NCBI GenBank assembly: GCA_021157525.1
Contig: JAGGWK010000016.1
Coordinates: 1,836 to 65,835 of the forward strand
Direction of reading: 5' to 3'
DNA length: 64,000 nucleotides
Origin: Candidatus Cloacimonadota bacterium
Lineage (GTDB): Bacteria; Cloacimonadota; Cloacimonadia; Cloacimonadales; TCS61
A program made the translations under genes and the position numbers. Under the pieces are notes generated by a model, which was not told where the DNA came from, searched no databases, and saw only the letters and a program-made list of their open reading frames with translations. This document shows, in pieces, positions 8,880 to 43,352 of the stretch. Within the stretch, counting starts at the first letter, position 1. The number at the start of each line of letters is the position of its first letter.

Positions 8880-8931
8880 TATGCAGTAAAAAGCGGTATG
8901 CATCCATAATAAAAAATAAACGGGAGAACAA

Positions 8932-16862: not shown

Positions 16863-16874
16863 GTAGGAGCGAAT

Positions 16875-19856
16875 ATGAAGCAGTTTAGTGTAATTGTGCT
16901 ATTATTGATCGTGGGCCTGTTGCCCGCGCAAATGTATTGGGAAAACGATGGTTTGCCGGTGAGGCAGGGAGTGAATATTGAGTGGTTCCGGTCTTCTGCA
17001 CAAGTGGGCACCGATATCGTTTATGGATGGTCTGATACCCGTCGCGGCGACCGCGACATCTGGGCTCAGCGTATCGATAGCGACGGCAACTCGGTGTGGC
17101 AGGACGGCGGTGTAATGATCAACGGCTATGTTAACCGCCAGGAAGACATCGTGCTTATCCCGGTGGGAAATGACGAAGTGATCTGTGCCTGGATAGACTT
17201 CCGCAATGGCGATGACGGTGACGTCTATGCTCAAAAGCTGGATGGCACCGGTAACCTGATGTGGAATGCTGAAGGTGTGCCGCTGTGCCTCGATCCTGAC
17301 GAACAAATTTCTCTTAATATCGTGAGCGACGACAATGGCGGCGCCTTCGTGATATGGATAGACAGCCGTAATTCCGGTGGTGTGGACATCTTTGGTACTC
17401 ATATTCTGGCAAACGGCACCATCGCCGCAGGGTGGGACGTAAATGGTAATTCCATCGTGGCCGAAAGTGGCCCTCAAAACGGCCATACCTTCTGGGAAGA
17501 TGGCAATGGCGGTGCCGTGCTTGCATGGCATGACGAACGGGATCCCAATAACCCGAGCATTTACATGCAGCGTATCGCACCGGATGGCACTCTGATGTGG
17601 AATGCCGGCGGCAACGAATTGTGCGTGGTAAACGGCGAGCAAACCAATGTAAAAATGGCTCTCCTCACCAATGGAAACATGTTTTTTACCTGGCGTGACA
17701 AACGCTCTGATGCCGACGGAAATCTCTATTGCCGCGCGGTTGCCTTGGATGGCACCTTTGTGTATGACGAAACAGTGGTGTACGCAGGCAGTGGTATTCA
17801 GCGTAACCCCCGTGCTGCTTCAGGTTCGGATGGCAGCGCCTTTGTGGTGTGGGAAGATGGTCGAAGTGACTTTTATTTCAAAGACATTTATGCTCAGAAG
17901 ATAAATGCCGACGGTTCCCTTGCCTGGGATCCAGCCGGTGTGGTAGTGAGTGATGCCGATAATGATCAGCTGAATCCCCGGCTTTTTGGGGATGATAGCG
18001 GCGGAACCTGGATCATCTGGGATGACGCCCGAGGATCTGGTTACCCCGAATTGGACATCTATGTGCAACACCTCAATGCCGATGGGAGCCCACAATTAAC
18101 CGCCAATGGTCAATTGCTGTGCAATGCCCCCGGAGAACAATTTGCTCCCCTTATCAAGGATGCAGGGAATGGACGGATTTATGCCAATTGGGGCGATAAC
18201 CGTACCGGCTCTACCGGTATTTACCTGCAGATTTTAGATAGCAATGGCAACGAACTGCTCGGAGCCAATGGCGAAGAACTCTGGTATGGCCTCTGCGGCG
18301 ATGCGATAAATTATCAACTGCTCATTGCCGATGAAAAACCGGTGATAACCTGGATAGATACACGTAAATCAGTAATCGCTAACCAGATTTATATGCAGGT
18401 ACTCAATCCCGATGGCACAAACATCCTCACTCCCGATGGAGAACCGATAACCAACATGACCAACTACAATCAGGAAAACATGGATGTGGTCTATGGCAAC
18501 GGGTTGGTCGCTGCATCATGGGAAGAAAATCGTGGAGACTTCAAACAGATCTATGCTCAGGCGGTAGATTTGAACAATAACTACATTTGGTCTGCCGATA
18601 CCGGCCTGTTGGTGGGTGACGTGTATGCTCAGCAAGAATTCACCAAGATTGATGCAAGTGGCGACAATTTTAACATCGGCTGGTCGGATTATCGCGACTG
18701 GATGAACGGCTTTGAAATCTACGGCCAGAAAATTGACGCCGATGGCAATCTGCTGTGGGGCGCCGAAGGCAAACTTATTGCATCCAATGCAGGTGACGAT
18801 GTACTGGCTGATGTGGTGGGAAATTACTACATCTGGCAAGGTGGTGACCTCTATGACCAGGATATCTATGTGAAAAAAGTGGATGACGATGGTAACACCG
18901 CAGCAGGATGGCCGGCTGCCGGCTTGGTAGTGTGTGCTGCGCCAGACAATCAGGAAAAAGCATCCGGTATGATGACTCCTGACGGATTGCTGATCGTGTG
19001 GCGGGATAAGCGGGATGGAAACTTTGATATCTATGGCCAGATTGTTCAGCCTGACGGCACCTTCTTATGGACCGATGATGGCCTGCCTCTGGTTCAGGTA
19101 GAAAACGATCAGGATAATTTCCAGTTTGTCTATTCCACAGATATCGCAATGGTATGGGAAGATTTTCGCAACGGTGTTTACTACGACATCTACATGCAGC
19201 GCTTTAATGACAACGGTGCAGAATTATGGCAGGAAGATGGCATCAGCGTGATACAGAAAAACAGCGACCAAGTGTCACCTGCTATCACCACAGACGGCGA
19301 GTTTTACTTTGTTTTCTGGGAAGATTACTCCATCGAATCTGAATCCAATCTCTATGGACAGAAATTTACCCTTGATGGCACCAAGTGGTGGAATCCCGAT
19401 GGCAAACTGATCAGTGACGCCATCCGTAACCAAAATGCGCCGGTAGCTCATACCGATGGTAACGGTAACATCTATGTGATCTGGGAAGATACCCGCTCCA
19501 GCGGCAAAACCGATATCTACAACATCTATGCGCAAAAAATCGATGTGGATACGTCGGTTCATCCCAATGAGCCAGCTCCGGCAAACCATGTGATTTCCCA
19601 AAACTATCCAAATCCCTTCAATGGCAACACCAGCATCTCCTTCGATCTGAACCAAAGCATCTATCCCGGTGCTCAGCTGAAAATATACAATGTTCGTGGT
19701 CAGCTGGTGCGCAATCTGCAACCGGCCGGCAACAGCAATTTCAGCTGGGATGGCCGTGATAACAAAGGTTCAGCAGTTGCCGAAGGCATTTATATGTATC
19801 GTCTTGAAGCCGATTCCTTTACATCGGCACCCCGTAAAATGGTTCTTTTGAAATAG
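16875..19856 (+). CDS. secreted repeat protein (about 16 propeller-blade-like repeats) with a T9SS C-terminal sorting domain
   Basis: Signal peptide. There are 16 copies of a unit of ~55-60 aa centred on D-I-Y-A-Q-K-I-D-x-D-G-x-x-x-W. The tail is QNYPNPFNGNTS...RKMVLLK. Confidence 0.8.
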   Translation: MKQFSVIVLLLIVGLLPAQMYWENDGLPVRQGVNIEWFRSSAQVGTDIVYGWSDTRRGDRDIWAQRIDSDGNSVWQDGGVMINGYVNRQEDIVLIPVGNDEVICAWIDFRNGDDGDVYAQKLDGTGNLMWNAEGVPLCLDPDEQISLNIVSDDNGGAFVIWIDSRNSGGVDIFGTHILANGTIAAGWDVNGNSIVAESGPQNGHTFWEDGNGGAVLAWHDERDPNNPSIYMQRIAPDGTLMWNAGGNELCVVNGEQTNVKMALLTNGNMFFTWRDKRSDADGNLYCRAVALDGTFVYDETVVYAGSGIQRNPRAASGSDGSAFVVWEDGRSDFYFKDIYAQKINADGSLAWDPAGVVVSDADNDQLNPRLFGDDSGGTWIIWDDARGSGYPELDIYVQHLNADGSPQLTANGQLLCNAPGEQFAPLIKDAGNGRIYANWGDNRTGSTGIYLQILDSNGNELLGANGEELWYGLCGDAINYQLLIADEKPVITWIDTRKSVIANQIYMQVLNPDGTNILTPDGEPITNMTNYNQENMDVVYGNGLVAASWEENRGDFKQIYAQAVDLNNNYIWSADTGLLVGDVYAQQEFTKIDASGDNFNIGWSDYRDWMNGFEIYGQKIDADGNLLWGAEGKLIASNAGDDVLADVVGNYYIWQGGDLYDQDIYVKKVDDDGNTAAGWPAAGLVVCAAPDNQEKASGMMTPDGLLIVWRDKRDGNFDIYGQIVQPDGTFLWTDDGLPLVQVENDQDNFQFVYSTDIAMVWEDFRNGVYYDIYMQRFNDNGAELWQEDGISVIQKNSDQVSPAITTDGEFYFVFWEDYSIESESNLYGQKFTLDGTKWWNPDGKLISDAIRNQNAPVAHTDGNGNIYVIWEDTRSSGKTDIYNIYAQKIDVDTSVHPNEPAPANHVISQNYPNPFNGNTSISFDLNQSIYPGAQLKIYNVRGQLVRNLQPAGNSNFSWDGRDNKGSAVAEGIYMYRLEADSFTSAPRKMVLLK
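16935..19550 (+). repeat. in-frame tandem array of ~16 diverged coding repeats (period ~165-180 nt)
   Basis: Motif series: DIWAQRIDSDGNSVW, DVYAQKLDGTGNLMW, SIYMQRIAPDGTLMW, DIYAQKINADGSLAW, DIYVQHLNADGSP, GIYLQILDSNGNE, QIYMQVLNPDGTN, EIYGQKIDADGNLLW, DIYGQIVQPDGTFLW, DIYMQRFNDNGAELW, NLYGQKFTLDGTKWW, NIYAQKID and others. Confidence 0.7.
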
Positions 19857-19864
19857 GAGTTGGG

Positions 19865-22159
19865 ATGAAAAAACTTATCCTCCTTGCGATTCTTGCGGTA
19901 GCCTGCTCCCTTATCTGGGGGCAGGTTTCCCTGGATCCACGTTATCATACCTACCAGGAAATAAAAACCGAAATAGATTCTCTTGCTGCTCTCTACCCGG
20001 AATTGGTAATGGTCGATTCCATCGGTGTTACCCATACCGACAACCTTCCCATCTGGGCTGTAAAACTCTCGGATAACGTAACGGACGACGAAGATGAGCC
20101 GGCCGTACTTTATGTGGGCCAGTGCCATGCCGAAGAAGTATTGGGCAACGAGATCGTGATGTATATGATCAAAGATATTCTGGATCACCGGATGATGCAG
20201 CCCTATGCCTATTGGCTGCAATATCTGGAAGTGTGGTTCATCCCCACCATCAATCCAGAAGGATTACAGGTAGTGATGGATGGCTTGGATACTGCCTACC
20301 GTAAAAACAAAACCGATTGCAACGAAAACGGCACGTTCCTGGAAAACATCGATTATGAGGTGGGCCCGGGAAATGACGAAGATGGGGTAGATCCCAATCG
20401 CAATTATGCTTTTAACTGGATTCATGGAGATACCCTGTGGTGTCCCTATGGTGAAGAAACCTATGATTATTATCGTGGCCCATATCCGTTCTCCGAAGGC
20501 GGAACCCAGGCCGTTCGCGATCTTGCATCGCAACAGCATTTTCTCTATTCCATCAACTGGCATTCATCCCGAACCGGAAATTTCTCGGAACAGCTTTTTT
20601 ATCCTTATCAATGGACAGATACCAAAAAAGCGGTGGATTTTGAATATAACAAACTTATCGGCGAAACAGTTGCCGGGCTAATCGTGCGGGAAACCCCTAC
20701 CGGCAGCCAGCAATACTATGAACCGTCACCATCTATGAATCACAAAGGATCGGCGCACGAGTGGTTTTATCAGGCCCACGGAACAGTGCAGTTGCTCATA
20801 GAATGTGGTACAAACAATCTGCAGCCCGCTGCTCCCCTGGTAGATGACACCTGCCAGCGGAACAGCGTGGGCGCCTATTGGTTGCTGAATAAAGCTCTTG
20901 GCGCTCAGGTAGATTCTCCCATGATTACCGGACACATCACCTCCGCTTCCACTGGTCAGCCTTTGGTAGCCGAGGTTGTGGTGGAGGAAAAGCACTCATC
21001 GTTTTTTGCTCCCCGCCTTAGTGATGAACTCTATGGCCGCTACTGGCGTCCCATCATGCCGGGAACCTACACTGTTCAGATCTCAAAAACCGGTTATGAA
21101 ACTCAGGTTTTTACCAATGTAACGGTTAACAATTCCGGCGCTACAACGATTGACGCCCAGCTGGTTCCTCTGGCTGCCGCCACTCTGCAAGGCACCATCA
21201 CCTCTTCATTACCCCTCAATGACGTGACCATCACCCTGATGGATGACGAGCCGATAACGGTGATGGCTGATCCCAGCGGCGCTTTCCAACTGGATTATTT
21301 TGCAGGTGAGTATCCCCTGCAAATCACGGCACCCGGCACGGTTCCAATCCTTACTTCCGTTACTCTGGATGCAGGAGCCAATAGCCTGGATGCAACTCTT
21401 TTGGCCGAAGAAGTAATATTTAGCGAAGATTGGACAGAAGGCTTTGCCGACTGGGGAACTTCCGGGCCCTGGGTGATAAACATCAATCCCGATACAGGAC
21501 AGCACTATGTGGATGACTCTGCTGATCCCTTTTATGATAACTATCTGGATGCCCGGTTGTGGACAGCCAACATAAACACTCATGGCGCATCCGATGACAT
21601 GGTGCTGATGATCGAACAAAAGTATTACACCGAATGGGACGAAGACTTTTGCTACATCGACATCTCCACCGATGGCCAAAACTGGGATGAGCTGGCATCC
21701 TATACCGGACAAAAAGATTACTGGCACACCGTGCTCTTCGACCTGGGTGACTATACCGAAGAAAACGTCCGCCTGCGCTTCCGTCTGGTTACCGACTCTT
21801 CCCTCAATGATCCCGGCTGGTCTGTCGGCAATGTGCGCATTGTGGCTTCCACCGGCGCAAATACCCCCCAGATACCAGCGGCTACAACCCTTCTGCAGGG
21901 AAATTACCCAAATCCCTTCAATCCCGAAACAATCATTCGCTTCTCTCTGGCAACTGCCGGGGATGTGAAACTGAATATTTACAATCTGAAAGGGCAAAAA
22001 ATACGCACGCTGGTGGATGACGAACTGCCGGTAGCAGAGCACGCCATCCTGTGGGACGGTGTGGACGACACCCATAAAAAGGTGGCATCCGGCGTGTATT
22101 TTTATACCCTCAAAACCGGGGATTACCGTTCCACGAAAAAAATGCTGTTAATAAAATAG
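19865..22159 (+). CDS. M14-family zinc carboxypeptidase with a CarboxypepD_reg-like domain, a jelly-roll (MAM-like) domain and a T9SS C-terminal sorting domain
   Basis: HTYQEIKTEIDSL, zinc motif CHAEE (HxxE), NPEG, YRKNK, GVDPNRNY, INWHS and LLIECG (catalytic Glu context). The tail is GNYPNPFNPETI...KKMLLIK. Confidence 0.85.
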   Translation: MKKLILLAILAVACSLIWGQVSLDPRYHTYQEIKTEIDSLAALYPELVMVDSIGVTHTDNLPIWAVKLSDNVTDDEDEPAVLYVGQCHAEEVLGNEIVMYMIKDILDHRMMQPYAYWLQYLEVWFIPTINPEGLQVVMDGLDTAYRKNKTDCNENGTFLENIDYEVGPGNDEDGVDPNRNYAFNWIHGDTLWCPYGEETYDYYRGPYPFSEGGTQAVRDLASQQHFLYSINWHSSRTGNFSEQLFYPYQWTDTKKAVDFEYNKLIGETVAGLIVRETPTGSQQYYEPSPSMNHKGSAHEWFYQAHGTVQLLIECGTNNLQPAAPLVDDTCQRNSVGAYWLLNKALGAQVDSPMITGHITSASTGQPLVAEVVVEEKHSSFFAPRLSDELYGRYWRPIMPGTYTVQISKTGYETQVFTNVTVNNSGATTIDAQLVPLAAATLQGTITSSLPLNDVTITLMDDEPITVMADPSGAFQLDYFAGEYPLQITAPGTVPILTSVTLDAGANSLDATLLAEEVIFSEDWTEGFADWGTSGPWVININPDTGQHYVDDSADPFYDNYLDARLWTANINTHGASDDMVLMIEQKYYTEWDEDFCYIDISTDGQNWDELASYTGQKDYWHTVLFDLGDYTEENVRLRFRLVTDSSLNDPGWSVGNVRIVASTGANTPQIPAATTLLQGNYPNPFNPETIIRFSLATAGDVKLNIYNLKGQKIRTLVDDELPVAEHAILWDGVDDTHKKVASGVYFYTLKTGDYRSTKKMLLIK

Positions 22160-22171
22160 AGTGAGGACTAT

Positions 22172-25100
22172 ATGAAAAAACTGACATTCCTGGCCATCGC
22201 GTTGCTTCTTATCGCAGGCTTGGCGGCCCGTTTTGAGTTTACCGGTGACGATGCCCAATTGCAGTTCACCTACTATAATGATGACTTGCAGGATACCAGA
22301 GATGCCGAAGTGGCTATCGTGGCACTGCCTGCTACCGACGTAACCATCTCTGTGGATCAGGCCCAATGTGCCATCTACGACGCTGCGGGAAATTACCTGC
22401 GAGACGAAACCCTGCGTGGTGACGACGTGGTAGAGATCACCGATCACTTTGTGATGCGGGAACTCTATGGCCACACATTGCGGGTAAATAAAGTGCGTCA
22501 GACCGATGACCTGAAAATCGTGGTAAAATCGGTAGAGGGTCAGATGCAGGCTGCATCCAGACTGGACGTTCCCGCTTCCGTGTCTCAAGCTTTTTTGCAA
22601 GTGTATAAAAACACGGTAGATAACTTTGATATTTCTTATCTTTCCCGTGCCGAAGTAGCGCCATCCCGAATGCTGATAATTACACCTTCGGGGCTGGAGC
22701 AGTATGTTCAGCAGTTGGCTCAATGGAAAAATCAGCGGGGCGTACTTACGGAAATCGTTCATCTGGAAGACGTTGGTACTACAAATGTGGAAATCAAAAA
22801 TTATATCCAAAATGTGTATAATACGCAGGATACACCTCCGGATCATCTGCTCATTATCGGTGATGTGGATATGCCATACTCCTTTCCCACTTTCCTCATC
22901 GACGGCAATGTGGGACGTGAGATGGATGTAACCGACCTTCCTTATACGTTGTTGGATGGCACCGATTATTTCCCTGAGATGATCTATGGCCGGATCTCGG
23001 TGGATGCTCCCATGGAGATGATGATCGTCATCAACAAAATTCTCAACTACGAAAAAACGCCCTACATGGATGATCCGGACTGGTTTGAACGAGCCCTGGT
23101 TGTGGCTGGAAACTTCAGTAATTCACCACCTGTCCCCACCACTCCTGTATCAGTGAGCCGATGGTTGAAAGAAAAATTTGTGGATTATGGGTATCAGCAG
23201 GTGGATGAAGTGTATTATCCACCTACCGCCAACGGCGTGGTTCCCATCTCTAATGCCTTGGATAACGGTGTGGGATTTGTCACCTATCGGGGCTGGGGAA
23301 ATGCCCACGGCTGGAATTATCCCTATTTCCACGAAGAAGATGTAAACAATCTGAACAACGGCTGGAAATTACCGGTGATGACCTCTGTGGTCTGTAACAC
23401 CGGTGACTTTGGGAATATCAACGTGGATCCCTGTTTTGGTGAAAAATGGCTCCGTGCCGGTACCACACCCACCTCTCCAAAGGGCGGTGTGGCTTTTGTT
23501 GGCCCATCCGACCTTCATACCAGTACCAGGCTCAATAACAGCATTTTTGCCGGTTTCTGGACTGGCGTATTGGATGAAGGTATCCGTGAATTCGGCGTTG
23601 CCGTACTCCGTGGAAAGATGGAATTATACCGTAATTTCCCCAACGATCAAGGGGCAGACGGTTATGTGAATTTCTATTTTCACGTGTATAACGTTATCGC
23701 AGATCCCAGCCTGATGATGTGGACGAAAACCCCACAACCCATTACAGCATCCCTGCCTGCCTCAGTTACCATAGGAACCAATCTTATCACCATAGATCTT
23801 CCCGGACTGGACGGTGCCGTTGCTACCGCCTACAAGCAGGATGAATATTGCAATGCCGTGACAGTGGAAAATGGCGTAGCTTATCTTCCGCTAAATTCTA
23901 CTACTGAGGGTGAGGTGATCGTTACCATCACCAAACCGGATTATCTGCCTCTGGAAACCACTATCCCAATCACTCAGGAAGCAGAAGATATTGGCGTGTC
24001 AGACATTTCACCTCAGGGAGATGTAATTGCCGGCACCACTGTGGATGTAGCCATTACTCTGCAAAACTATGGAACCAGCGCTGTGAGTGGCGTAACAGCT
24101 AACCTCAGCACCGATAATGCCTTGGCTGTGGTGCAAACGACTTCCGCATCTTACGGCGATATCGCCGCCGGAGCCAGCGCAACGCAAAACTTCACGATAG
24201 CCCTGGATCCCCAGATTCCCGATAACATGGCCATTATCTTTGACGTGGAAATCCCCGGATTTGGCCCGGCAAAATTTTCCCTTCACGTAGGTAGCCTGGC
24301 TTTCGACGTTACATCGGTAGTGGTAAATGATGCCAATGGCGTGCTTGATCCCGGCGATACCGCCGACATCACCGTCACTCTGAAAAATATCGGCAGCTTC
24401 GATACCACTGTGGATGCCGCTTTGACGGCCATCACCACCGGCGCTGAAGTAACTCAGGCAAACGGCGGAAATCACACCGTTGCCGTGGGGGCCAGCTTCG
24501 ACGCTACTTTCACGGTTCATGTGTTTGTTGACTGCTACATAGGCAGATCCCTTCCCTTTGATGTGGAGCTTACTTCCAGTAGTGCACAACAATCTGTCGC
24601 CCGGGTAAACCTTACTGCCGGTATTATTGATAATACTGCTCCCACCGGCCACGACTGGTATGGTTACTGGGCCTATGACAGCAACGATACCGACTTTGAT
24701 CAGGCGCCTGTGTATGAATGGCACGAAACTGATCCGGAAAATGGCGGGAGTGGCTCAGTTATCAGCCTGACAGATGACGACACCCAGTCCATTCCACTGC
24801 CCTTCCCATTTACCTACTACGGCAATGAATATGACAGCCTGAGTGTGTGCTCCAATGGCTGGGTTTCTTTTGAGACCACTTGGTATCACGACTTTACAAA
24901 CTGGACGATTCCCTGCCCGCTGGGACCATACGCCATGATCGCCGCCTATTGGGATGACCTGAAAGGCGAAAGCTATATGGTGGGTGACAGCACTTTCTGG
25001 CATGATATCCGTGTAACCTACGACTATCTGGAAAGCGACAATATCTTTGTTATCCAATGGAACGATCTGTACAACAGGCTGGATGACGTTACCGAATATG

Positions 25101-25654
25101 CCTTCCAGCTGGTGCTTTACGATCCGGCTCATTATCCGGTGCAAAGTGGTGATGGCATTATTCAGGTGAACTACCAATCCATCAACAACCCGGATAACGA
25201 AAATAACTACACGACCGTAGGAGTAGAAAATGCCAACCAGCAAGATGGTCTCCTCTATACCTTCGCCAATATCTATCAGCCGGGAGCATCGGAATTAGCC
25301 AACAACATGGCCATCCGCTTTACTACTGAAGCTCCCGATGGATACACCCCGGCAGGGCATACCACCGTCCCGGCTGCTCTGGTAACCCTCCAACAAAATT
25401 ATCCCAATCCGTTTAATCCCGTTACTACCATCAGCTATTCCATACAGGATGCAGGAAACGTGGAGCTTATCGTGTACAATGTTCGTGGCGAGAAAGTGCG
25501 CACCCTCGTGCAGGAAACAATGGAAGCCGGCACCCACAAAGTGGTGTGGAACGGTATAGATGATAACGAAAATGCTGTGGCCAGTGGCATCTATTTCTAT
25601 CGCATCGTCACAAAAAACAGCTCAATCACCAAAAAAAGTCTGTTATTGAAGTAG
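22172..25654 (+). CDS. secreted gingipain-like peptidase C25 family protein with CARDB-like domains, one NIDO-like module and a T9SS C-terminal sorting domain
   Basis: MLIITPSG, IKNYIQNVY, HLLIIGD, TDLPYTLLDG, IYGRISV, YRGWGNAHGW and SVVCNTGDF. The tail is QQNYPNPFNPVTT...KKSLLLK. It is a paralog of 11922..16862. Confidence 0.85.
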   Translation: MKKLTFLAIALLLIAGLAARFEFTGDDAQLQFTYYNDDLQDTRDAEVAIVALPATDVTISVDQAQCAIYDAAGNYLRDETLRGDDVVEITDHFVMRELYGHTLRVNKVRQTDDLKIVVKSVEGQMQAASRLDVPASVSQAFLQVYKNTVDNFDISYLSRAEVAPSRMLIITPSGLEQYVQQLAQWKNQRGVLTEIVHLEDVGTTNVEIKNYIQNVYNTQDTPPDHLLIIGDVDMPYSFPTFLIDGNVGREMDVTDLPYTLLDGTDYFPEMIYGRISVDAPMEMMIVINKILNYEKTPYMDDPDWFERALVVAGNFSNSPPVPTTPVSVSRWLKEKFVDYGYQQVDEVYYPPTANGVVPISNALDNGVGFVTYRGWGNAHGWNYPYFHEEDVNNLNNGWKLPVMTSVVCNTGDFGNINVDPCFGEKWLRAGTTPTSPKGGVAFVGPSDLHTSTRLNNSIFAGFWTGVLDEGIREFGVAVLRGKMELYRNFPNDQGADGYVNFYFHVYNVIADPSLMMWTKTPQPITASLPASVTIGTNLITIDLPGLDGAVATAYKQDEYCNAVTVENGVAYLPLNSTTEGEVIVTITKPDYLPLETTIPITQEAEDIGVSDISPQGDVIAGTTVDVAITLQNYGTSAVSGVTANLSTDNALAVVQTTSASYGDIAAGASATQNFTIALDPQIPDNMAIIFDVEIPGFGPAKFSLHVGSLAFDVTSVVVNDANGVLDPGDTADITVTLKNIGSFDTTVDAALTAITTGAEVTQANGGNHTVAVGASFDATFTVHVFVDCYIGRSLPFDVELTSSSAQQSVARVNLTAGIIDNTAPTGHDWYGYWAYDSNDTDFDQAPVYEWHETDPENGGSGSVISLTDDDTQSIPLPFPFTYYGNEYDSLSVCSNGWVSFETTWYHDFTNWTIPCPLGPYAMIAAYWDDLKGESYMVGDSTFWHDIRVTYDYLESDNIFVIQWNDLYNRLDDVTEYAFQLVLYDPAHYPVQSGDGIIQVNYQSINNPDNENNYTTVGVENANQQDGLLYTFANIYQPGASELANNMAIRFTTEAPDGYTPAGHTTVPAALVTLQQNYPNPFNPVTTISYSIQDAGNVELIVYNVRGEKVRTLVQETMEAGTHKVVWNGIDDNENAVASGIYFYRIVTKNSSITKKSLLLK

Positions 25655-25661: not shown

Positions 25662-26828
25662 ATGCTGGGATTAATACTGGGATTATTCTTATTGATTGGT
25701 TTTGCCAGTGTGGAATATCATCGGCACCTATACTATCGTAGCCGGATTCCCCATGTTGTGCATATTAACGGCACCCGAGGCAAATCCAGTGTAACCCGTT
25801 TGATCGCCGCCGGACTTCGTGCCGGCGGCCTGAAAACTATAGCCAAGACCACCGGGTCGGCACCGCGCCTGATCTTTGAATCGGGCAATGAAACACCGAT
25901 TAAACGGCATTTCGGAGCCAATATCAAAGAGCAGCTCAAGATTATCAAGTATGCATCCAAACGAGATGCCGAAGTACTGGTGCTGGAATGCATGGCCGTT
26001 ACCCCGGAATATCAGTGGGTGGCCGAACACAAAATGGTACGCTCCACCGTGGGGGTAATGACCAATTGCCGCCTGGATCACCTGGATGTGATGGGACCCG
26101 GCCTGAGAAATTGCACCCTCTCACTGTGCAATACTATTCCCACCAACGGCAAAATGTTCACCTCGGAAAACTATGTTTTTCCATTGATGAAGAAAGTGGC
26201 GGATAAACAGGGAACCGAGATTTTCTATGCTGATCCCAGGACGATCAGTGATGAGGAGATGCAGGGCTTTAATCACATCGAGCACAAAGAAAATGTTTCT
26301 CTGGCTCTGGATGTGTGCGCTCAGTTTGGTGTGCCTCGCAAGGTTGCTCTGGAGGGGATGTATAAAGCAATCCCGGATATCGGAGCTACCGAAGTGTTTC
26401 ATTATACTAAGCATCATAAAGATGTGCTTTTTGCCCACTCCTTTGCCGCCAATGATCCACAGTCAACTCGGGTGCTGCTGCAATACATCCCCAAGCTTTA
26501 TAAGGATATCGATGCCATCTCGCTGGTGCTGAACACTCGTGCAGATCGTATCTATCGTTCGAAGCAGCTTATCGATATGCTGGCAGATATGGATTTTGAT
26601 CAGTTGATATTGGTGGGACAGCAAACCAATGCCATGCGTCAATATGCAGCCCAACGAAAGATTCCGATGAACAAAGTGCATGACATCGGCTGGGCTACGG
26701 GAGATGAAGTGGCGGAAGAGGCCATGAAAATAAAGGCATCCAGAATATTGCTGTTTGGCATTGGAAACATCGGTGGCAACGGTGGATTAATAGTAGATTT
26801 TTTCAAAGAGAGGAATACAAATGTTTGA
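25662..26828 (+). CDS. pgsB: poly-gamma-glutamate synthase PgsB/CapB (Mur-ligase-like amide ligase)
   Basis: It is collinear with Bacillus PgsB as I recall it: N-terminal TM, INGTRGKSSVTRL (P-loop), KTTGS, PIKR, ECMAV.PEYQ, DHLDVMGP, FAANDPQST, NTRADR and GIGNIGG. Confidence 0.9.
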   Translation: MLGLILGLFLLIGFASVEYHRHLYYRSRIPHVVHINGTRGKSSVTRLIAAGLRAGGLKTIAKTTGSAPRLIFESGNETPIKRHFGANIKEQLKIIKYASKRDAEVLVLECMAVTPEYQWVAEHKMVRSTVGVMTNCRLDHLDVMGPGLRNCTLSLCNTIPTNGKMFTSENYVFPLMKKVADKQGTEIFYADPRTISDEEMQGFNHIEHKENVSLALDVCAQFGVPRKVALEGMYKAIPDIGATEVFHYTKHHKDVLFAHSFAANDPQSTRVLLQYIPKLYKDIDAISLVLNTRADRIYRSKQLIDMLADMDFDQLILVGQQTNAMRQYAAQRKIPMNKVHDIGWATGDEVAEEAMKIKASRILLFGIGNIGGNGGLIVDFFKERNTNV

Positions 26829-27270
26829 AGTAGCAATTGGCTTAGGTGTGCTGATCAGTCTGTTTTTTCTGGAAACCTTTGGCGCGGCAGCAGGGGGTAT
26901 TGTGGTGGCCGGATATGTGGCCATGTATTTGCATCAACCCTGGACCATTGCCGCCACCCTGATCATTAGCCTTTTGGTGTTTTTAATCGTAAAATTGCTG
27001 AGCAAAGTGATGTTTATGTATGGCCGTCGCCGCATGGTGATTTCTGTATTATTGGGCTTCATCCTGGGATGGGCAGCCCGTACGTACGGCCTCTTCTTTT
27101 TCTTGCCAGCCGACTATTCGGTGAACGTCATCGGCTTTATTATTCCCGGGCTTATCGCTAATTCCATGGAGCGCCAGGGTGCGCTTAAAACCCTCTCCAT
27201 CATGACTGTTGCAGCGGTGCTGGTGCGCCTGATCCTGGTGGTGTTGTTCGCCGGCAAATTAATCGGATAG
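26821..27270 (+). CDS. pgsC: poly-gamma-glutamate biosynthesis membrane protein PgsC/CapC
   Basis: A 149-aa multi-TM protein with GGIVVAGYVAMYL, MYGRRRM and GFIIPGLIANSMERQG, matching the Bacillus PgsC pattern. It overlaps pgsB by 8 nt. Confidence 0.9.
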   Translation: MFEVAIGLGVLISLFFLETFGAAAGGIVVAGYVAMYLHQPWTIAATLIISLLVFLIVKLLSKVMFMYGRRRMVISVLLGFILGWAARTYGLFFFLPADYSVNVIGFIIPGLIANSMERQGALKTLSIMTVAAVLVRLILVVLFAGKLIG

Positions 27271-27279
27271 GAGAGAAGA

Positions 27280-28383
27280 ATGTTTATTCCAAGTGCAAAA
27301 TCAAAACTGAGTCTCATCGTACTTTTGGTTGTTTCCATCGCTCTCTTTATCTGGGTAGATAGCAGCCGAACCTTTGTAAAAGAAAAATACTATCACGAAA
27401 AACTGGCCGCCGCCCAGCGTATGCAGCAAGCCATGGATGCAGTAAAAGGATATCGTGCCAGCCAGAACGTATTTATCGATGAGCAAAATGACCCGGGAAA
27501 AACCGGACTCATCGGCGAGAAGGAAACCCTTATCACCACAGACCGTGGGAGTCTTACGGCAAAGCTCACTACCCTCAATCCAAATCTGGCAGCGGCTGTA
27601 GTCGCTATGCTTAAAGAAGCCAAACTGCACAAAGGTGATCGTGTGGCTGTGAGCTGCACCGGATCCCTGCCAGCCGCCAATATGGCTGTGTATAGCGCCG
27701 CTGCTGTGCTGGGACTTGACCTCACCGTCATTACATCGGTGGGAGCTTCCATGTTTGGTGCCAACGACCCGCAATTTACCTGGCTGGATATGGAACGGTT
27801 TTTCAATGAGCAGGGCATCTTTCCCTATCGCAGTATCGCAGCCTCTATGGGTGGCGGGCGCGACCTGGGCCGTGGCCTCAACCTTGCTGGTCGTGCGCTT
27901 ATAGAAGACGCAATCAAACGGAATGAAGTGGAGCTGGTTCATGAAGTGAGCCTGGAGAAAAATATCAACCGTAAGATGGCTCTGTTTACTCAGGCATCAG
28001 ACAAGCCGGTGAAACTCTATATCAATATCGGTGGCGGACTTTCCAGTCTGGGAAATTCGATAAACGGGCGCCTGGTACCTCCGGGATATCATCGTTATGT
28101 TTCGGTGAAAAACATCCCCCTCAAGGGTACGATGTTTCTCTATGCAGAGCAGGGTGTCGGCGTGATACATCTGTTGGATATACCACAGATTGCCAGCAAG
28201 TACGATCTGCCCACAGCTCCGGATCCTATTCCCCAACCCGGCACGGGACGCATGTTTGTGGATGAACGCTATAACGTCACCGTTGCCAGCATTGCTTTGG
28301 CACTGCTCCTCATCCTTATATTTACCGTGATCTTCTTTGACCATAAACAGCTCAAATTGAAAGAAGAGGAAATCAACATCTAA
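27280..28383 (+). CDS. membrane-anchored protein in the PgsA position; not CapA-like; tentatively the 'poly-gamma-glutamate system protein' family seen with PgsBC in non-Bacillus taxa
   Basis: It has N- and C-terminal TM helices. It lacks the CapA/PgsA metallophosphatase-like GDxMxGR signature. Its position is immediately after pgsC (9-nt gap). The family name comes from memory and has not been searched. Confidence 0.5.
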   Translation: MFIPSAKSKLSLIVLLVVSIALFIWVDSSRTFVKEKYYHEKLAAAQRMQQAMDAVKGYRASQNVFIDEQNDPGKTGLIGEKETLITTDRGSLTAKLTTLNPNLAAAVVAMLKEAKLHKGDRVAVSCTGSLPAANMAVYSAAAVLGLDLTVITSVGASMFGANDPQFTWLDMERFFNEQGIFPYRSIAASMGGGRDLGRGLNLAGRALIEDAIKRNEVELVHEVSLEKNINRKMALFTQASDKPVKLYINIGGGLSSLGNSINGRLVPPGYHRYVSVKNIPLKGTMFLYAEQGVGVIHLLDIPQIASKYDLPTAPDPIPQPGTGRMFVDERYNVTVASIALALLLILIFTVIFFDHKQLKLKEEEINI

Positions 28384-29255
28384 TGAAACAATTCTATATC
28401 ACCCTGCTACTGTGCGTTATCGGTGTTACACTGATGGCAGGTGAAATCACCGCCATCGGCTCTCACGATGATTACATGATTTATAACAAAACCAATTCAA
28501 AAATAGTGCGTTATCTGGAACTAAAGCCCCAAGCTTCCGTAACCTTTCATACGGTGAACATCAATTCCATCGACGTGCTTACCCGTTTGGTAATGCCATC
28601 GAACAAGGGGGTGGAATATCGGTACGAAATCGCCTTTGACGGTACTCGCAAGAAAATTACCAAAACGGCTCGTACCAGCAGAACATCCCAAGGGGTAAAT
28701 GGCGAAACGATATCAAAATACAACAAATTGTGCCAGGCCATCCCCCGCAATAACAAACAGGTAACCATTATCAACACATCGGCTTACACTCTGCTGGTGA
28801 AGATCAATTCAACCGAAATATCCCGTAGTACCAGAACCATAGACTACGTGGCCTACTCACCCGATGTGTACGATGCCGATACGGTGCTTAAACTGAATGG
28901 CCGGGAATTTACATACTATCATGGCGGGAAAATTTCCCTCACACTGGAAGGCCCAATCTATCTGAAAGTGTTCAGCCGCTTGCTGTTTGACAATAGTTAC
29001 ACTCCCAGCATGCACTACGCTTTTAATGTGTACGACAACAATACGCTGCTCAGAGCCTACACCGAAAAGGCCCATAAATCCCGGAACACCTGTTTGGTAG
29101 GGGATGCTACCATCATCCCGTCTACCGCAGATATAAATATCATCAGGCTGGATGCAGGTACGCACCACATTCGCATAGAAGATGGCGCGATCAATCGCAA
29201 TGTTATCTTTAAATTCTATATTAGCAAATCTGCTGTGGAAATCGAGTCCAAATGA
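28383..29255 (+). CDS. hypothetical secreted/periplasmic beta-rich protein, translationally coupled to the PGA genes
   Basis: Its ATG shares one base with the upstream TAA. Signal peptide MKQFYITLLLCVIGVTLMAGE. No family was recognised. Confidence 0.6.
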   Translation: MKQFYITLLLCVIGVTLMAGEITAIGSHDDYMIYNKTNSKIVRYLELKPQASVTFHTVNINSIDVLTRLVMPSNKGVEYRYEIAFDGTRKKITKTARTSRTSQGVNGETISKYNKLCQAIPRNNKQVTIINTSAYTLLVKINSTEISRSTRTIDYVAYSPDVYDADTVLKLNGREFTYYHGGKISLTLEGPIYLKVFSRLLFDNSYTPSMHYAFNVYDNNTLLRAYTEKAHKSRNTCLVGDATIIPSTADINIIRLDAGTHHIRIEDGAINRNVIFKFYISKSAVEIESK

Positions 29256-30268
29256 AAAGCTATATCCTTATAATGATCTTCCTCAGCTCACTTCTGTGGG
29301 CTACCGGCCTGAACTTTTCCCATCGTGTTTCCCTGGATACCTACTACACAGACAATGTCCTCAATCTCTCGGAGAGCAGTCTGGACGAGTTTGACGGCGG
29401 GACCCATCCGGAAAAATATGATCTGGAAACCTCTGATGACCTGGTGACCTCGGTACGGCTGTGGCTGGATGTAAAACATCGTTATGTGCTGGGCCATACC
29501 AGCATCCAGCGCCTCGTGCTGAAATTTGAAAAACATTGGAGCAATGATCTGCTGGACGGTGGCTACATTCAGCTTAAACACCGACAATACCTCAGCAAAT
29601 CGGTGCGGGTGATGGCAGATTATTTCTACTATCCCGAAATCTACGTAAACCAATACATCCCGGCTCTGAAGGATGTGGCGGATTACAAAGAATACAGTTA
29701 TGCTGAAAATGCCTGGCGCTGCACTGTGGAATGGGATGTGACGCCTGCTCTGGAGCTTGCTTATCGGGCAGAATTTACACAGAAATACTACAACAAATAT
29801 TTTACCGAGTATGATGCATCCGGCTTGAAACATCGGCTCGTCGCCAGCTATCGGGTGAGTGATAAGCTGAGGATTTCCGGCTTTGCGGCCTACGAATCCG
29901 ATGATGCTGATGGGGAAGATGCCTACCCGGATGTTTCGGCAATTACTCAGATAAAAGATGCATCTTACCAAGAAAATCAGACGGGGATTTCTCTGGATTT
30001 TGCTGTGACTCCATCCTGGAAGATCACTGCCGTTGCCCAGTATCAGATGCGCTTTTATCAAAGTGATGTGGCTGGCGATACCTATCATCTGGGACGGGAT
30101 GACTACCGCACGGACCTGCGGCTGGAAGTGGAGACATCTCAATGGAAAAATCTTCGCATCCAACCTTGGTGGCATCTGGAAAAACGGGAAGTTTCCTCAC
30201 CCTTTGCGGAGGTGAAGTCCGCTAAGGAATATGTTACCAACGAGATGGGCGTGACTGTCCGTTTCTAA
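29252..30268 (+). CDS. predicted outer-membrane beta-barrel protein, last gene of the PGA-linked operon
   Basis: ATGA overlap with the upstream gene. It has a signal peptide, pervasive alternating hydrophobic/polar strands rich in Y/W, and the C-terminus ...EMGVTVRF (terminal Phe, as in OMP sorting signals). Confidence 0.6.
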   Translation: MKSYILIMIFLSSLLWATGLNFSHRVSLDTYYTDNVLNLSESSLDEFDGGTHPEKYDLETSDDLVTSVRLWLDVKHRYVLGHTSIQRLVLKFEKHWSNDLLDGGYIQLKHRQYLSKSVRVMADYFYYPEIYVNQYIPALKDVADYKEYSYAENAWRCTVEWDVTPALELAYRAEFTQKYYNKYFTEYDASGLKHRLVASYRVSDKLRISGFAAYESDDADGEDAYPDVSAITQIKDASYQENQTGISLDFAVTPSWKITAVAQYQMRFYQSDVAGDTYHLGRDDYRTDLRLEVETSQWKNLRIQPWWHLEKREVSSPFAEVKSAKEYVTNEMGVTVRF

Positions 30269-30296: not shown

Positions 30297-30326
30297 GAAC
30301 CCGGCTTTTCGCCGGGATTCTTTTTT
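30297..30326 (+). terminator. rho-independent terminator closing the 11922-30268 gene run
   Basis: GAACCCGGC-ttttc-GCCGGGATTC followed by TTTTTT, 29 nt after the stop. Confidence 0.8.
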
Positions 30327-31776: not shown

Positions 31777-32157
31777 TTACTCTACGTAAATCCTCACAGT
31801 GGTTACCGATCCATCATCTTCTTCCACATCAGCATAAAACAGATCACCCACCTCACCAGCGGCCACCAGGGTAAAAAGTTCTTTCCATTTGATGCTGGAA
31901 AAATCGAAATTAGTCTCGCCCATGTTGGCTTTCATCTGAGCATTTGAAGGGATGAGCCTTGCAGCCAGCTTTACCACCGAAACCGGCAAACTGATGTGGA
32001 GCTTGGGATGGGAGTGTTCTTCCCTGGTGACGAGGATGACAAATTTTTTCCCTTGCTGTGGCGGCTTTGGGCCCATAGCTGCCAGCAGCTGGGCCGCTTC
32101 TGCCGCAGTGATGGTTCCTTCGGAAACCATATCCAGGATTTTACGCGTCTCACTCAT
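31777..32157 (-). CDS. small protein with an N-terminal SHOCT-like helix motif and an unknown C-terminal domain
   Basis: RKILDMVSEGTITAAEAAQLLAAMG lies at the N-terminus. It overlaps the upstream DUF4097 gene by 8 nt. Confidence 0.65.
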   Translation of the reverse strand: MSETRKILDMVSEGTITAAEAAQLLAAMGPKPPQQGKKFVILVTREEHSHPKLHISLPVSVVKLAARLIPSNAQMKANMGETNFDFSSIKWKELFTLVAAGEVGDLFYADVEEDDGSVTTVRIYVE

Positions 32158-33523
32158 CGGTTTTTCCCATGGCTTTCAAGAGCCGCTCCGCATCGTCAGC
32201 TGATATTTTCCCGGCTTCCAGAAGTTCCAGGATTTTCAGCCGGGAACGTTCATCGACTTTTTGTCTGGTAGCGGGGGAGACGTCACGATCCTTTACCACA
32301 TGTTGAACCGCATCCACCACTTTGCTGATGTTGCTGTTTATGGTGGTTTCTGCCTTTTTCTTAAAAGTATCGCTGGAGACGTCGTGGAGAATGGTGGTTA
32401 CTTCAGTTTTGATACCTTCCAAAGCGTCATTCACCACGGTTTCCACATCAGACAACTGAATCTTGCTGAAGCGGTTTTGGGCTGCTTTCAGCTTTTCCTG
32501 GGCTTTTTTCAGTTTTACTTCCACCATATCTCTGGTTTTTTCATCGGGTATCTCTTGTAGAACAGAGGAGAAAACCTCGGAAATATCGGGCAGGATAATA
32601 GCCTGGTTAATGGCTGATTTTTTGTTGGTGATCACGATGCTGCCACTCTGATTATTTACTGTGATATCTACTTTTGCCGCTCCACGAACGATCTCGACGA
32701 TTTTGGCTTCATCCTTGGTGTGCTGATCATAATCGTCTGGGATACCGATGTGTATCTTTCCATGAAGGTTGGTGGCACTGAGGTCAAATTCCAGCTCGTC
32801 GGGAATCACCAGGGTGATCTTGCCATTGTCGTTTTCAAGCTGTATAGTCCCTGCCAGTATGGGTGAGAATTCGTAGTAGATTCCGCCGTTTTCGCCAACG
32901 ATAGAAACATTTTTAAAGGCGCTCTGCAAACTGCGTACCACGCCATTTTCATGTTTCAGATTCAGGTTGCCTTCGCATCCCACCAGTTTCACCGGCCCAT
33001 TCTCGGTGGTCAGCCGGATGTCGCCGTGGGTGTGTTTCATTTTCATCGGTCCGTTTTCAGTTTTGACAATTATCGTTCCCGTGCAATCCAGCACTTTAAC
33101 CGGCCCATTTTCCGCCTTGATATCCAGCGTCCCTTCTATCGCTTCTACCTTTAATGGCCCGTTTTCGCTTCTCAATTCCTGGATGCCATGGAGGTTTTTC
33201 AAGGAGATGCTACCATTTTCCGTACTTCCCCGCACTTCTGTGACGTAGGGTACTTTCAATTTGCATTTCCATACGGCTTCATTGGTCTTTTCCATGTCGT
33301 GTAATGCGATGTGCAGCGTGTTTTTCTCTTCATCAAAGGTGGTTTCAAGGATGCTTTCCAGAGTAATTTCCTCAGGCGCATTACTTACAAAATCAACTTT
33401 GATCGAGAGCTCGGTCTCTTCTTCTTCCCCGCCGATGACGGCGATGCCCAGGTTCTCGCTTTCTACTTGTACTACCAGATCCGTTCTGGTGTTAAATCGA
33501 AGTGTTTTTTCAAGATTGTTCAT
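32150..33523 (-). CDS. DUF4097-family beta-strand repeat protein (putative adhesin/LiaG-YvlB-like) with a coiled middle region and a C-terminal SHOCT-like motif
   Basis: Repeated ENGxIxL/ENGPVKV units (ENGSISL, ENGPLKV, ENGPVKV, ENGPMKM, ENGPVKL, ENGVVRS, ENGGIYY, DNGKITL). The C-terminus is LKILELLEAGKISADDAERLLKAMGK. Confidence 0.8.
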   Translation of the reverse strand: MNNLEKTLRFNTRTDLVVQVESENLGIAVIGGEEEETELSIKVDFVSNAPEEITLESILETTFDEEKNTLHIALHDMEKTNEAVWKCKLKVPYVTEVRGSTENGSISLKNLHGIQELRSENGPLKVEAIEGTLDIKAENGPVKVLDCTGTIIVKTENGPMKMKHTHGDIRLTTENGPVKLVGCEGNLNLKHENGVVRSLQSAFKNVSIVGENGGIYYEFSPILAGTIQLENDNGKITLVIPDELEFDLSATNLHGKIHIGIPDDYDQHTKDEAKIVEIVRGAAKVDITVNNQSGSIVITNKKSAINQAIILPDISEVFSSVLQEIPDEKTRDMVEVKLKKAQEKLKAAQNRFSKIQLSDVETVVNDALEGIKTEVTTILHDVSSDTFKKKAETTINSNISKVVDAVQHVVKDRDVSPATRQKVDERSRLKILELLEAGKISADDAERLLKAMGKTDE

Positions 33524-33525
33524 GG

Positions 33526-33885
33526 TTACCTTCCTTTGATCTTCCTGATCGCTTCATCCACCGAGAGGGTGCCTGCTTCTATTCTGGCAAGGATCTCCTC
33601 CGACGGGTGTTTGCCGGTTTTTGTAGCTTTGCACAGGATGGCTTGAACCTGAGCAAGGCGATTTTTTACCGTTGGGTATGAGATGCGCAGCGCCTTCTCC
33701 ACTTCTTTGATATTACCGCTGCAACATACAAAAACTTTTACAAATTCTGCCTGCGCAGCGGACAGGGCAGAAAAGTCGTCGATAGAAAAATGACCCTGGA
33801 TGGTCGTATTGCAGGACGGGCAGTGATATTCGGTGATTTCCAGAGTCGCATTGCATGCCGGACATGCTTTCAATCGTTTGTTCAT
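33526..33885 (-). CDS. DUF2089-family protein (zinc-ribbon plus HTH) with a C-terminal SHOCT-like motif
   Basis: CPACNATLEITEYHCPSCNTTIQGHF, then FVKVFVCCSGNIKEVEKALRISYPTVKNRL, and EEILARIEAGTLSVDEAIRKIKG at the end. AAGGAGGA lies before ATG 33885; the tracked start at 33969 is unlikely. Confidence 0.8.
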   Translation of the reverse strand: MNKRLKACPACNATLEITEYHCPSCNTTIQGHFSIDDFSALSAAQAEFVKVFVCCSGNIKEVEKALRISYPTVKNRLAQVQAILCKATKTGKHPSEEILARIEAGTLSVDEAIRKIKGR

Positions 33886-34333
33886 ATTATTTCCTCCTTG
33901 ATATCCGGGAGCAATGTCGCCTAAGCGGTTAAATATGTCAATGATAAAATAAATAAAATTAATAAACACATTGAATATATCAATTATGAGATGGCAAATG
34001 AAGGAAAGAGAGCTCTACTCTCCATGCCTGCGGCACAGAGCCACAAAAGCCCACGCCATTCTTCTATCGTTCCAGCGCTCCGCGCAGGGATGTATGTTTT
34101 GTCACATGCAGATTTGTGCACCCATGAGCATGCTCATGGAAAGTAGCGTTGTGTCCAGATGTGAGATTCTTATACTCCGTTTCTTTTTGGAAAAAGTAAC
34201 GCAAATCCACGATGGTTCCGGCTTTAGACACCTAAGGAGACGATTATCTGTGTGATGGCTTATGAACCCGGAAAAAAGGAGTGGAAAATAGGGGGATAAA
34301 AAAATCGTTAGCCAAGATGACTAACGACAAAAA

Positions 34334-40909: not shown

Positions 40910-41144
40910 TCTGTACTCCTGATGTTCATTTTTTTTATGTGCCAAATATGGAAAACTGCCTCCGGTTATGCAAGGGATATTTTATCCCCGGGACAAAATA
41001 CTCCTCAGCCTTAGGGTTTCTGAAGACTGAGCGCTGAACTATTTAACAGCGCAGATTATTTTAAATCTTGACATCAAAAGATTAGATTTTTGTTTTAGCA
41101 AAGTTTTTGACCTTTTGTTCGGGGTCTTTGATATTGGGAGTAGT

Positions 41145-43343: not shown

Positions 43344-43352
43344 GAGGATTAC

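Follow-up and report, generated by a model that had tools for sequence, protein, structure and literature searches.

A candidate periplasmic and outer-membrane export module encoded with the poly-gamma-glutamate synthase of a Cloacimonadota bacterium

In a 64,000-nucleotide (nt) stretch of DNA from Candidatus Cloacimonadota bacterium (GenBank assembly GCA_021157525.1, contig JAGGWK010000016.1, positions 1,836 to 65,835 of the forward strand; hereafter, the window), five open reading frames (ORFs) encode the poly-gamma-glutamate (PGA) synthase proteins PgsB and PgsC together with three further envelope proteins, ORF3, ORF4, and ORF5. Computational evidence suggests that the last three probably form a conduit that spans the inner membrane, the periplasm, and the outer membrane and exports PGA. 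PgsB, PgsC, and ORF3 belong to known families; what is new is the putative export module, ORF4 and ORF5, on a known synthase. An earlier note on this DNA, made from the sequence alone, had put forward the last two genes as candidate periplasmic and outer-membrane parts for export or anchoring, and this proposal is supported by the barrel model of ORF5, the co-occurrence of both genes with pgsBC, and their natural fusions.

The five genes lie on the same strand (Table 1) and form a translationally coupled unit. The junction sequence shows that pgsB and pgsC overlap by 8 nt, pgsC and ORF3 are separated by 9 nt that include a Shine-Dalgarno-like GGAGAG, ORF3 and ORF4 have TAATG in common, and ORF4 and ORF5 have ATGA in common. 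The unit is closed by an intrinsic terminator approximately 30 nt past the ORF5 stop, in which a hairpin of six pairs, all GC, precedes the T-run ATTCTTTTTT. The extent of the five ORFs (25662-30268) and their coupling through the TAATG and ATGA overlaps agree with the earlier note. Since a gene on the same strand for a 1160-amino-acid (aa) C25-like protein, a cargo of the type IX secretion system (T9SS), ends only 7 nt before the pgsB start, the transcription unit may begin further upstream than pgsB.

Table 1. Features of the PGA gene unit and of two genes upstream of it, in window coordinates.
Feature	Position	Strand	Description
M14 zinc carboxypeptidase	19865-22159	+	T9SS sorting domain; PF00246 5.9e-34
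C25 (gingipain)-like surface protein	22172-25654	+	1160 aa; T9SS C-terminal sorting domain (Por_Secre_tail); PF01364 1.7e-62
pgsB (capB)	25662-26828	+	388 aa; ATP-dependent amide ligase of PGA synthase, N-terminal membrane anchor
pgsC (capC)	26821-27270	+	149 aa; four-helix membrane subunit of synthase
ORF3	27280-28383	+	367 aa; TIGR04332 'poly-gamma-glutamate system protein'
ORF4	28383-29255	+	290 aa; secreted basic protein, two predicted CBM-like jelly-roll (beta-sandwich) domains; candidate link in the periplasm that binds PGA
ORF5	29252-30268	+	338 aa; predicted 14-stranded outer-membrane beta-barrel; candidate PGA channel
Intrinsic terminator	30300-30326	+	CCCGGC-TTTTC-GCCGGG hairpin, then ATTCTTTTTT

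ORF4 and ORF5 accompany the PGA synthase genes in distantly related bacteria. Three divergent ORF5 homologues (33%, 32%, and 22% identity) lie in loci with the same order of C25-like, pgsB, pgsC, ORF3-like, ORF4-like, and ORF5-like genes. A scan from the ORF3 side, with one genome per GTDB species, returned 243 relatives, and the best 80 of these 243, which contain no Fusobacterium, Francisella, or Leptospira, were analysed. Going by record titles, their loci belong to Cloacimonadota, to Bacteroidota in many cases, to Ignavibacteria and Melioribacter, to Calditrichota, Nitrospirota, and Acidobacteriota, and further to Latescibacterota, Fibrobacter, Lentisphaeria, Auribacterota, two metagenome-assembled genomes labelled Armatimonadota, and unclassified bacteria. 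ORF4 and ORF5 were called with hidden Markov models (HMMs) iterated over all ORFs of the loci, and those loci were counted that had at least 2.4 kb of DNA downstream of ORF3 (n = 68). In 63 of the 68, from about ten phyla, ORF4 and then ORF5 follow directly after pgsB-pgsC-ORF3. The linkage also holds in the other direction. A reciprocal metagenome scan seeded on ORF5 motifs, from an alignment (A1) described below, yielded 44 loci, 24 of them with enough upstream DNA, and pgsB-pgsC-ORF3 lies directly upstream of ORF5 in 22 of the 24, one of which (L085) corresponds, at 99% identity, to the window itself. The co-occurrence with pgsBC on which the earlier note had staked its proposal therefore extends beyond this genome. 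Between the window and the Bacteroidota versions, protein identity is 45-48% for ORF3 and falls to 17-25% for ORF4 and ORF5, which indicates that the gene order has outlasted long divergence. A functional link of ORF4 and ORF5 to the PGA synthase is very likely. In one metagenome locus (L119:6857-12922) the cluster is reordered, with the ORF5 homologue upstream of pgsB and not after ORF4.

Rosetta-stone fusions give the strongest argument that ORF3, ORF4, and ORF5 would be physically joined into a single chain linking the inner membrane with the outer one. The best 146 representatives of the ORF5 family were scanned with the ORF3, ORF4, and ORF5 HMMs. Barrel-only proteins make up 124 of the 146, and 1 more was scored as two pieces of ORF5. 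Another 17 have between one and three ORF4-type modules on the N-terminal side of the barrel. In the other 4 the inner-membrane protein ORF3 is fused to the barrel, with an ORF4 module between the two in P0130, P0131, and P0165 and without one in P0138. Additionally, an ORF4-like-ORF5 fusion stands beside a separate ORF4 at the Acidobacteriota locus L065 (12009-13961), and ORF3 and ORF4 are fused in frame in L083 (9905-11926). P0138, P0165, and L083 contain three hydrophobic segments, namely the ORF3 N-terminus, the ORF3 C-terminus, and a signal-like stretch before the ORF4/ORF5 part. Because the barrel must reach the outer membrane, and the number of crossings in these proteins is odd with a cytoplasmic N-terminus, the ORF3 domain of approximately 300 aa would lie in the periplasm. 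Some of the fusions would thereby connect the inner membrane with a barrel in the outer membrane through a single polypeptide, in itself an uncommon arrangement.

ORF5 can be assigned with high confidence to the outer-membrane barrels. A direct homologue search returned 14 proteins, all labelled hypothetical and without a Pfam domain, of which the named ones are from Cloacimonadota; this set constitutes the alignment A1, which was the input for AlphaFold2. The resulting model, with a mean predicted local distance difference test (pLDDT) score of 85.9 and a predicted template modelling score (pTM) of 0.79, comprises an N-terminal signal helix (the hydrophobic N-terminus spans residues 5-23) and 14 beta strands, joined by periplasmic turns of 2-5 residues and external loops of 7-29 residues in the classic outer-membrane protein pattern. 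A Foldseek search of the PDB returned outer-membrane barrels only. The 14-stranded CymA ranks at the top (E 9e-10, template modelling (TM) score 0.52-0.56) and OmpG, also 14-stranded, has the highest target-normalised TM score (0.62-0.67), with porins ranking after these two; sequence identity to CymA and OmpG is 8-10%. The strands of ORF5 alternate between a hydrophobic face (L, V, Y, A, I, F, W) and a charged one (24 K/R and 21 D/E), and the charged lumen face indicates a water-filled channel; the overall net charge of the protein is near neutral. The barrel periodicity and the ...GVTVRF C-terminus with its terminal Phe, both pointed out in the earlier note, are thus borne out, and the structure prediction it had suggested as a check on 29252-30268 returns a barrel.

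Neither Pfam nor NCBIfam holds a family for ORF5 itself, although a profile search of 1.84 billion proteins found 732 cluster representatives at E <= 1e-3, a number that falls to 469 when the limit is set to E <= 1e-10. Scattered sub-threshold barrel matches among 60 relatives in Pfam (OMP_b-brl in 6, Porin_4 in 3, then DUF2490, Omp85, and MtrB_PioB) support the outer-membrane class independently and give no family. The Poly_export/SLBB domains of Wza-type proteins for polysaccharide export at the outer membrane (OPX proteins) were found by Pfam in neither ORF5 nor the 60 relatives. Furthermore, ORF5 is not a member of the AlgE, PgaA, BcsC, or PelB barrels, since it has 14 strands and no tetratricopeptide repeat (TPR), and none of these proteins occurs among its top 50 fold matches, though it may act like them. 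The most conserved residues of ORF5, which are Y32, N35, S40, D62-D63, and R312 together with the motifs YNKYFTEYD (179-188), KDASY (235-239), and D276..YH.GR.D284, are located in the predicted external loops. The suggestion that ORF5 is a generic porin placed by chance was rejected on the basis of the reciprocal synteny and the fusions.

ORF4 has a single N-terminal hydrophobic, signal-like segment, in keeping with the signal peptide that the earlier note had ascribed to it. A direct homologue search gave just 3 matches, and identity to the slot-equivalent proteins of related loci is 17-36%, with conserved columns in common; ORF4 evidently evolves fast. A profile built from 67 slot-mates taken from synteny found 26 proteins in a database search, and neither ORF4 nor its 67 relatives match a specific Pfam or NCBIfam family or contain a Poly_export/SLBB (OPX) domain. 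The AlphaFold2 model, built on an alignment of 25 of the 26 database proteins (pLDDT 79.9, pTM 0.53), consists of a signal helix followed by two all-beta domains, which span approximately residues 20-145 and 155-285. It matches folds of carbohydrate-binding modules (CBMs), namely tandem CBM22-1/-2 and CBM51, domain by domain and with low TM-scores (0.2-0.3). Chains of BcsB, the periplasmic subunit of cellulose synthase, were also retrieved by Foldseek (E ~1e-4, TM 0.12-0.23), with the jelly-roll part alone in common; ORF4 has no anchor. The model thus indicates a jelly-roll fold of the polymer-binding type and nothing beyond that. The family is also basic, with a median net charge of +15 and positive values in 90% of the 67 members, which fits binding to a polyanion. 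In three metagenome loci (L102:6154-6990, L108:6124-6975, and L111:4558-5409), a signal-peptide protein of approximately 280 aa occupies the ORF4 slot, and the ORF4 HMM is silent on it even at E <= 10; this protein is either a very divergent ORF4 or a non-homologous replacement.

The synthase core, in turn, is as clear from family models as the earlier note had judged it. PgsB matches TIGR04012 of NCBIfam with residues 6-381 on profile positions 5-380 (1.4e-123, 412.4 bits, equivalog cut-off 222.7), its middle domain matches the ATP-binding PF08245 (Mur_ligase_M, 9.3e-07), and residues 1-19 form a hydrophobic segment. PgsC matches TIGR04011 of NCBIfam (1.2e-34, 119.5 bits, cut-off 96.45) and PF14102 of Pfam (1.4e-34, cut-off 27), and hydrophobicity analysis gives it four hydrophobic segments. 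A sequence search of the PDB gave no significant match for either protein. CapA/PGA_cap, GGT/CapD, and Asp/Glu racemase domains were found neither in the operon nor in the approximately 38 window ORFs scanned, a set that took in ORFs shorter than 200 aa only between 20 and 36 kb. In particular, ORF3, ORF4, and ORF5 have no CapA (PGA_cap) match at E <= 0.1 in Pfam and NCBIfam, and the operon junctions leave no space for a small ORF of PgsE size. The earlier note had likewise seen no CapA/PgsA, PgsE, or CapD/GGT.

The same note had described the three remaining proteins as unrecognised and the operon as non-canonical, which holds for ORF4 and ORF5 but not for ORF3. ORF3 matches TIGR04332 of NCBIfam (9.5e-93, 310.8 bits, cut-off 100), with residues 11-318 on profile positions 2-307 of 307, and is located directly 3' of pgsC both here and in all 84 comparison loci with pgsC. 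The capA product of Francisella capBCA was named 'poly-gamma-glutamate system protein' in a strain-sequencing paper (PMC5362203), and a 2025 preprint on Cloacimonadota named the cluster CapB, CapC, and PgsF, the third gene being the counterpart of ORF3 (bioRxiv 10.1101/2025.11.11.687785). The core of capB, capC, and a third gene is therefore an already described Gram-negative layout, and only ORF4 and ORF5 are without a name. Candela and colleagues are said to have described such three-gene Gram-negative clusters in 2009, with a third product that has no relation to CapA or CapE and is conserved across Gram-negatives. In ORF3, strongly hydrophobic segments at 10-28 and 335-353, which correspond to the transmembrane helices noted earlier at both ends of the protein, flank the domain of approximately 300 aa, whose net charge is near neutral. 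No significant PDB sequence match was found for ORF3, the best being ClpP at E 0.007. The identification of ORF3 as a hidden CapA was rejected on sequence, as it has no PGA_cap match.

In Bacillus, polymerisation of PGA and its handover across the inner membrane by PgsBC(A) are established. In the route proposed for the window, the PgsB ligase and its membrane partner PgsC would polymerise glutamate at the inner membrane and send the chain outward. ORF3, with a two-helix inner-membrane anchor and a periplasmic domain, would stand where PgsA/CapA does in Bacillus, the basic two-jelly-roll ORF4 would bind or guide the polyanionic chain across the periplasm, and the 14-stranded barrel ORF5 would be its exit through the outer membrane. 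Since 14-stranded barrels of the CymA/OmpG class pass oligosaccharides, it is plausible on steric grounds that ORF5 would admit one unbranched strand of PGA. We infer from these data that ORF3, ORF4, and ORF5 contact one another, that PGA is the substrate, that it moves outward, and that it is exported as opposed to anchored. A Cloacimonadota enrichment culture contains a matrix stained by 4',6-diamidino-2-phenylindole (DAPI) that was read by its authors as PGA (bioRxiv 10.1101/2025.11.11.687785). More broadly, there is about an even chance that ORF3-ORF4-ORF5 represents an apparatus not described before that is dedicated to secreting a polyamide, a polymer distinct from polysaccharides and from ribosomal proteins, across the envelope. 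It would be widespread in the Fibrobacteres-Chlorobi-Bacteroidetes (FCB) group and several other phyla and condensed to a single polypeptide in some lineages, and the C25-like surface protein, which is without the catalytic His, may be its surface partner for processing or anchoring in T9SS phyla.

Several observations weigh against an export route of this kind. The external loops of ORF5 are acidic and the net charge of its lumen is only about +3, unlike the electropositive alginate pore of AlgE, and the long conserved external loops of the ORF5 model may gate or plug the barrel. The gene content of the loci also varies. ORF4 occurs alone in 4 of the 68 loci (L047, L060, L071, and L078, of which L071 still has a tblastn match to ORF5), neither gene is found in 1 of the 68 (L036), and three metagenome loci have the non-matching 280-aa protein in the ORF4 slot. 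One ORF5 homologue (L104:6938-7981) is an orphan, whose neighbours are the housekeeping genes for acetate kinase and histidyl-tRNA synthetase, and no pgs gene occurs within 7 kb of it. Furthermore, the classic Gram-negative clusters of Fusobacterium and Francisella are described with three genes, and Fusobacterium is the one Gram-negative shown to secrete PGA; if ORF4 and ORF5 are truly absent from these bacteria, the two genes are not a universal requirement. The Francisella capBCA locus, for its part, was never tied to PGA production (PMC4688374).

ORF4 and ORF5 might instead hold PGA at the surface as a capsule anchor, in place of the CapD-mediated attachment of B. anthracis, with the barrel as a foothold and the jelly-rolls as lectin-like PGA binders. 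Such a role would suit the CBM-like fold and strongly basic charge of ORF4, the variation from one to three or more in the ORF4 modules that a fused barrel carries, as in adhesin-like repeats, the position of the conserved ORF5 motifs in external loops, and the lack of CapD/GGT in the scanned ORFs. However, in the fusions the ORF4 modules precede the barrel on its N-terminal side, and where ORF3 is also part of the protein they stand between the ORF3 helices and the barrel, which places them in the periplasm and not at the surface, and the polymer would still have no route through the outer membrane; anchoring is therefore unlikely. It is quite unlikely, too, that the cluster makes no secreted PGA and builds or modifies another envelope component, for example by gamma-glutamylation of a periplasmic or outer-membrane target, with ORF5 as the target or an assembly partner. 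PgsB and PgsC score as equivalogs of PGA synthase, Fusobacterium with the same core secretes PGA according to the passage of PMC3815933 that cites Candela 2009, and the DAPI-stained matrix of the Cloacimonadota enrichment was interpreted as PGA, even though a different product would agree with Francisella capBCA not being linked to PGA (PMC4688374) and with the tight linkage, in T9SS phyla, of a C25-like surface protein in which the canonical His is absent but the Cys is kept.

The nearest structural matches of ORF5, CymA and OmpG, import oligosaccharides, and secreted peptidases (M14 and C25-like) are encoded just upstream of the cluster. Both facts would be compatible with ORF5 as a channel that takes up glutamate, peptides, or fragments of PGA, either as supply for synthesis or to recycle the polymer, and with ORF4 as a periplasmic binding protein. 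This is very unlikely, as covalent fusion to the inner-membrane ORF3 suits a fixed, synthase-attached conduit and not a diffusion porin, the cluster is without an inner-membrane importer, and the linkage is to the synthase and not to catabolic genes. A chance or lineage-specific adjacency of the genes, with no functional meaning, can be regarded as effectively refuted: the single orphan ORF5 (L104) and the few loci without ORF5 would fit it, but the order is kept at 17-25% protein identity in about ten phyla, the linkage holds both ways, and the fusions recur.

PGA export through ORF3, ORF4, and ORF5 can be set beside several known systems. As in the PgsBCA(E)/CapBCADE systems of Bacillus, whose PgsB and PgsC are clear orthologues of those described here, pgsB and pgsC lie side by side in this order and overlap, whereas the window operon continues with ORF3-ORF4-ORF5, has no PgsA/CapA, PgsE, or CapD/GGT, and belongs to a host with an outer membrane. 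The three-gene clusters of Fusobacterium nucleatum, Francisella (capBCA), and Cloacimonadota (CapB-CapC-PgsF) have the same core with a TIGR04332-type third gene, but their descriptions end at three genes, and the window unit adds the conserved ORF4 and ORF5. Systems for synthase-dependent exopolysaccharide secretion (BcsA/B/C, PgaCD/B/A, Alg8-44/K/E, and PelF/D/E/B/C) likewise combine an inner-membrane synthase, a periplasmic handler, and a dedicated barrel in one operon, and the predicted ORF4 fold weakly resembles the jelly-roll domains of BcsB. Unlike the products of these systems, PGA is a polyamide, the ORF5 model has 14 strands as opposed to 16-18, and there is no TPR scaffold, sequence similarity, or cyclic di-GMP (c-di-GMP) receptor domain. 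CymA of Klebsiella oxytoca and OmpG of E. coli, the 14-stranded monomeric channels that best match the ORF5 model, differ from it in serving oligosaccharide import, in their gene contexts, and in the absence of the loop motifs of the ORF5 family. Finally, the composite OPX/beta-barrel translocons of Myxococcus (PMC9601211; PMC9603273) also pair a soluble periplasmic part with a separate barrel and were also found through synteny and structure prediction. They differ in the OPX domain, which ORF4 does not have, in barrel size, and in their association with Wzx/Wzy or ATP-binding cassette (ABC) pathways and not with an amide-ligase synthase.

A full-text literature search found no description of a periplasmic or outer-membrane PGA component, which is consistent with the view of the earlier note that the passage of PGA across an outer membrane was uncharacterised. 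In a survey of capsule systems, PGA is modelled as CapABCDE only, yet diderms are said to need an extra outer-membrane component (PMC5542703). The papers on Cloacimonadota name only CapBC and 'other proteins', or CapB/CapC/PgsF (bioRxiv 10.1101/2025.11.11.687785).

Upstream of pgsB, four consecutive genes for T9SS-sorted surface proteins (11922-25654, plus strand), with gaps of 8-12 nt, run into the cluster. The first encodes a C25-like protein of 1646 aa that has a propeptide and carries Tyr at the position of RgpB His211, the second a protein of 993 aa, the third the M14 carboxypeptidase, and the fourth the 1160-aa C25-like protein. Full-length homologues of the 1160-aa protein adjoin the pgs cluster in most loci of Cloacimonadota, Bacteroidota, Ignavibacteria, and Latescibacterota, and none is present at the Nitrospirota, Acidobacteriota, and Calditrichota pgs loci examined. 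In the phyla that have a T9SS, the C25-like protein is probably an accessory to the cluster. It also matches 4ief (4.9e-32), and its identification as PorU, the T9SS sortase, was rejected because its match to the PorU model reaches 76 bits where 420 are required. All 37 C25-like homologues keep the Cys that aligns with RgpB Cys244, and the position of RgpB His211 is Trp in the window protein and Glu, Trp, or Gln in homologues, with no invariant His anywhere in the alignment. His211 and Cys244 are taken here to be the catalytic dyad of RgpB, a numbering consistent with the 1cvr alignment, and despite its domain match the window protein does not have the C25 His-Cys dyad. It may be a pseudo-peptidase or represent a new catalytic arrangement tied to PGA; its role might be the processing or anchoring of PGA, or that of a substrate that undergoes modification. 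Full-length M14 homologues were found upstream of the C25-like gene only in L001, L007, L008, and L013, all Cloacimonadota-type loci, so that the M14 carboxypeptidase is a possible accessory gene with a weak link.

Other genes also flank the cluster in particular lineages. In the Calditrichota-type loci L069 (7244-8230) and L079 (7155-8204), a TolB-like beta-propeller gene is located directly upstream of pgsB, in the slot of the C25-like gene in T9SS phyla. Most Bacteroidota and Ignavibacteria loci have two extra conserved genes after ORF5, as in L021 (13379-15497). These encode an LVIVD-repeat beta-propeller of approximately 335 aa and an HGSNAT_cat (acyltransferase-like) membrane protein of approximately 370 aa, which may modify the polymer; neither gene is in the window, where the terminator follows ORF5. 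Within Cloacimonadota, wider synteny is conserved, since SHOCT/DUF2089-type genes (31777-33969, minus strand) and H+-pyrophosphatase and patatin-Omp85 genes (56667-61104, plus strand) of the window are pgs neighbours in the distant Cloacimonadota locus L001 as well. The window further encodes, at 53836-56286 (minus strand), a streptopain-like cysteine peptidase of family C10 that combines a prodomain resembling I69 inhibitors with a T9SS sorting domain, in a region rich in secreted proteases. Two ordinary operons are also present. One, at 4676-9585 (plus strand), encodes a phosphate ABC transporter with two PstS-like binding proteins and PhoU, and the other, at 41115-53763 (plus strand), is of maltodextrin type and encodes two alpha-amylases together with an ABC transporter and a MalK-like ATPase.

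Ultimately, ORF4 and ORF5 represent two concrete candidate families for the exit of PGA from cells with two membranes, the ORF5 family having at least 732 cluster representatives, and the conserved gene order and natural fusions make the export hypothesis directly testable. The finding bears on annotation, as it offers a provisional role for hundreds of 'hypothetical proteins', and on the engineering of PGA secretion in Gram-negative production hosts. It is also relevant to ecology in digesters and sediments, specifically to floc and matrix formation by Cloacimonadota and Bacteroidota.

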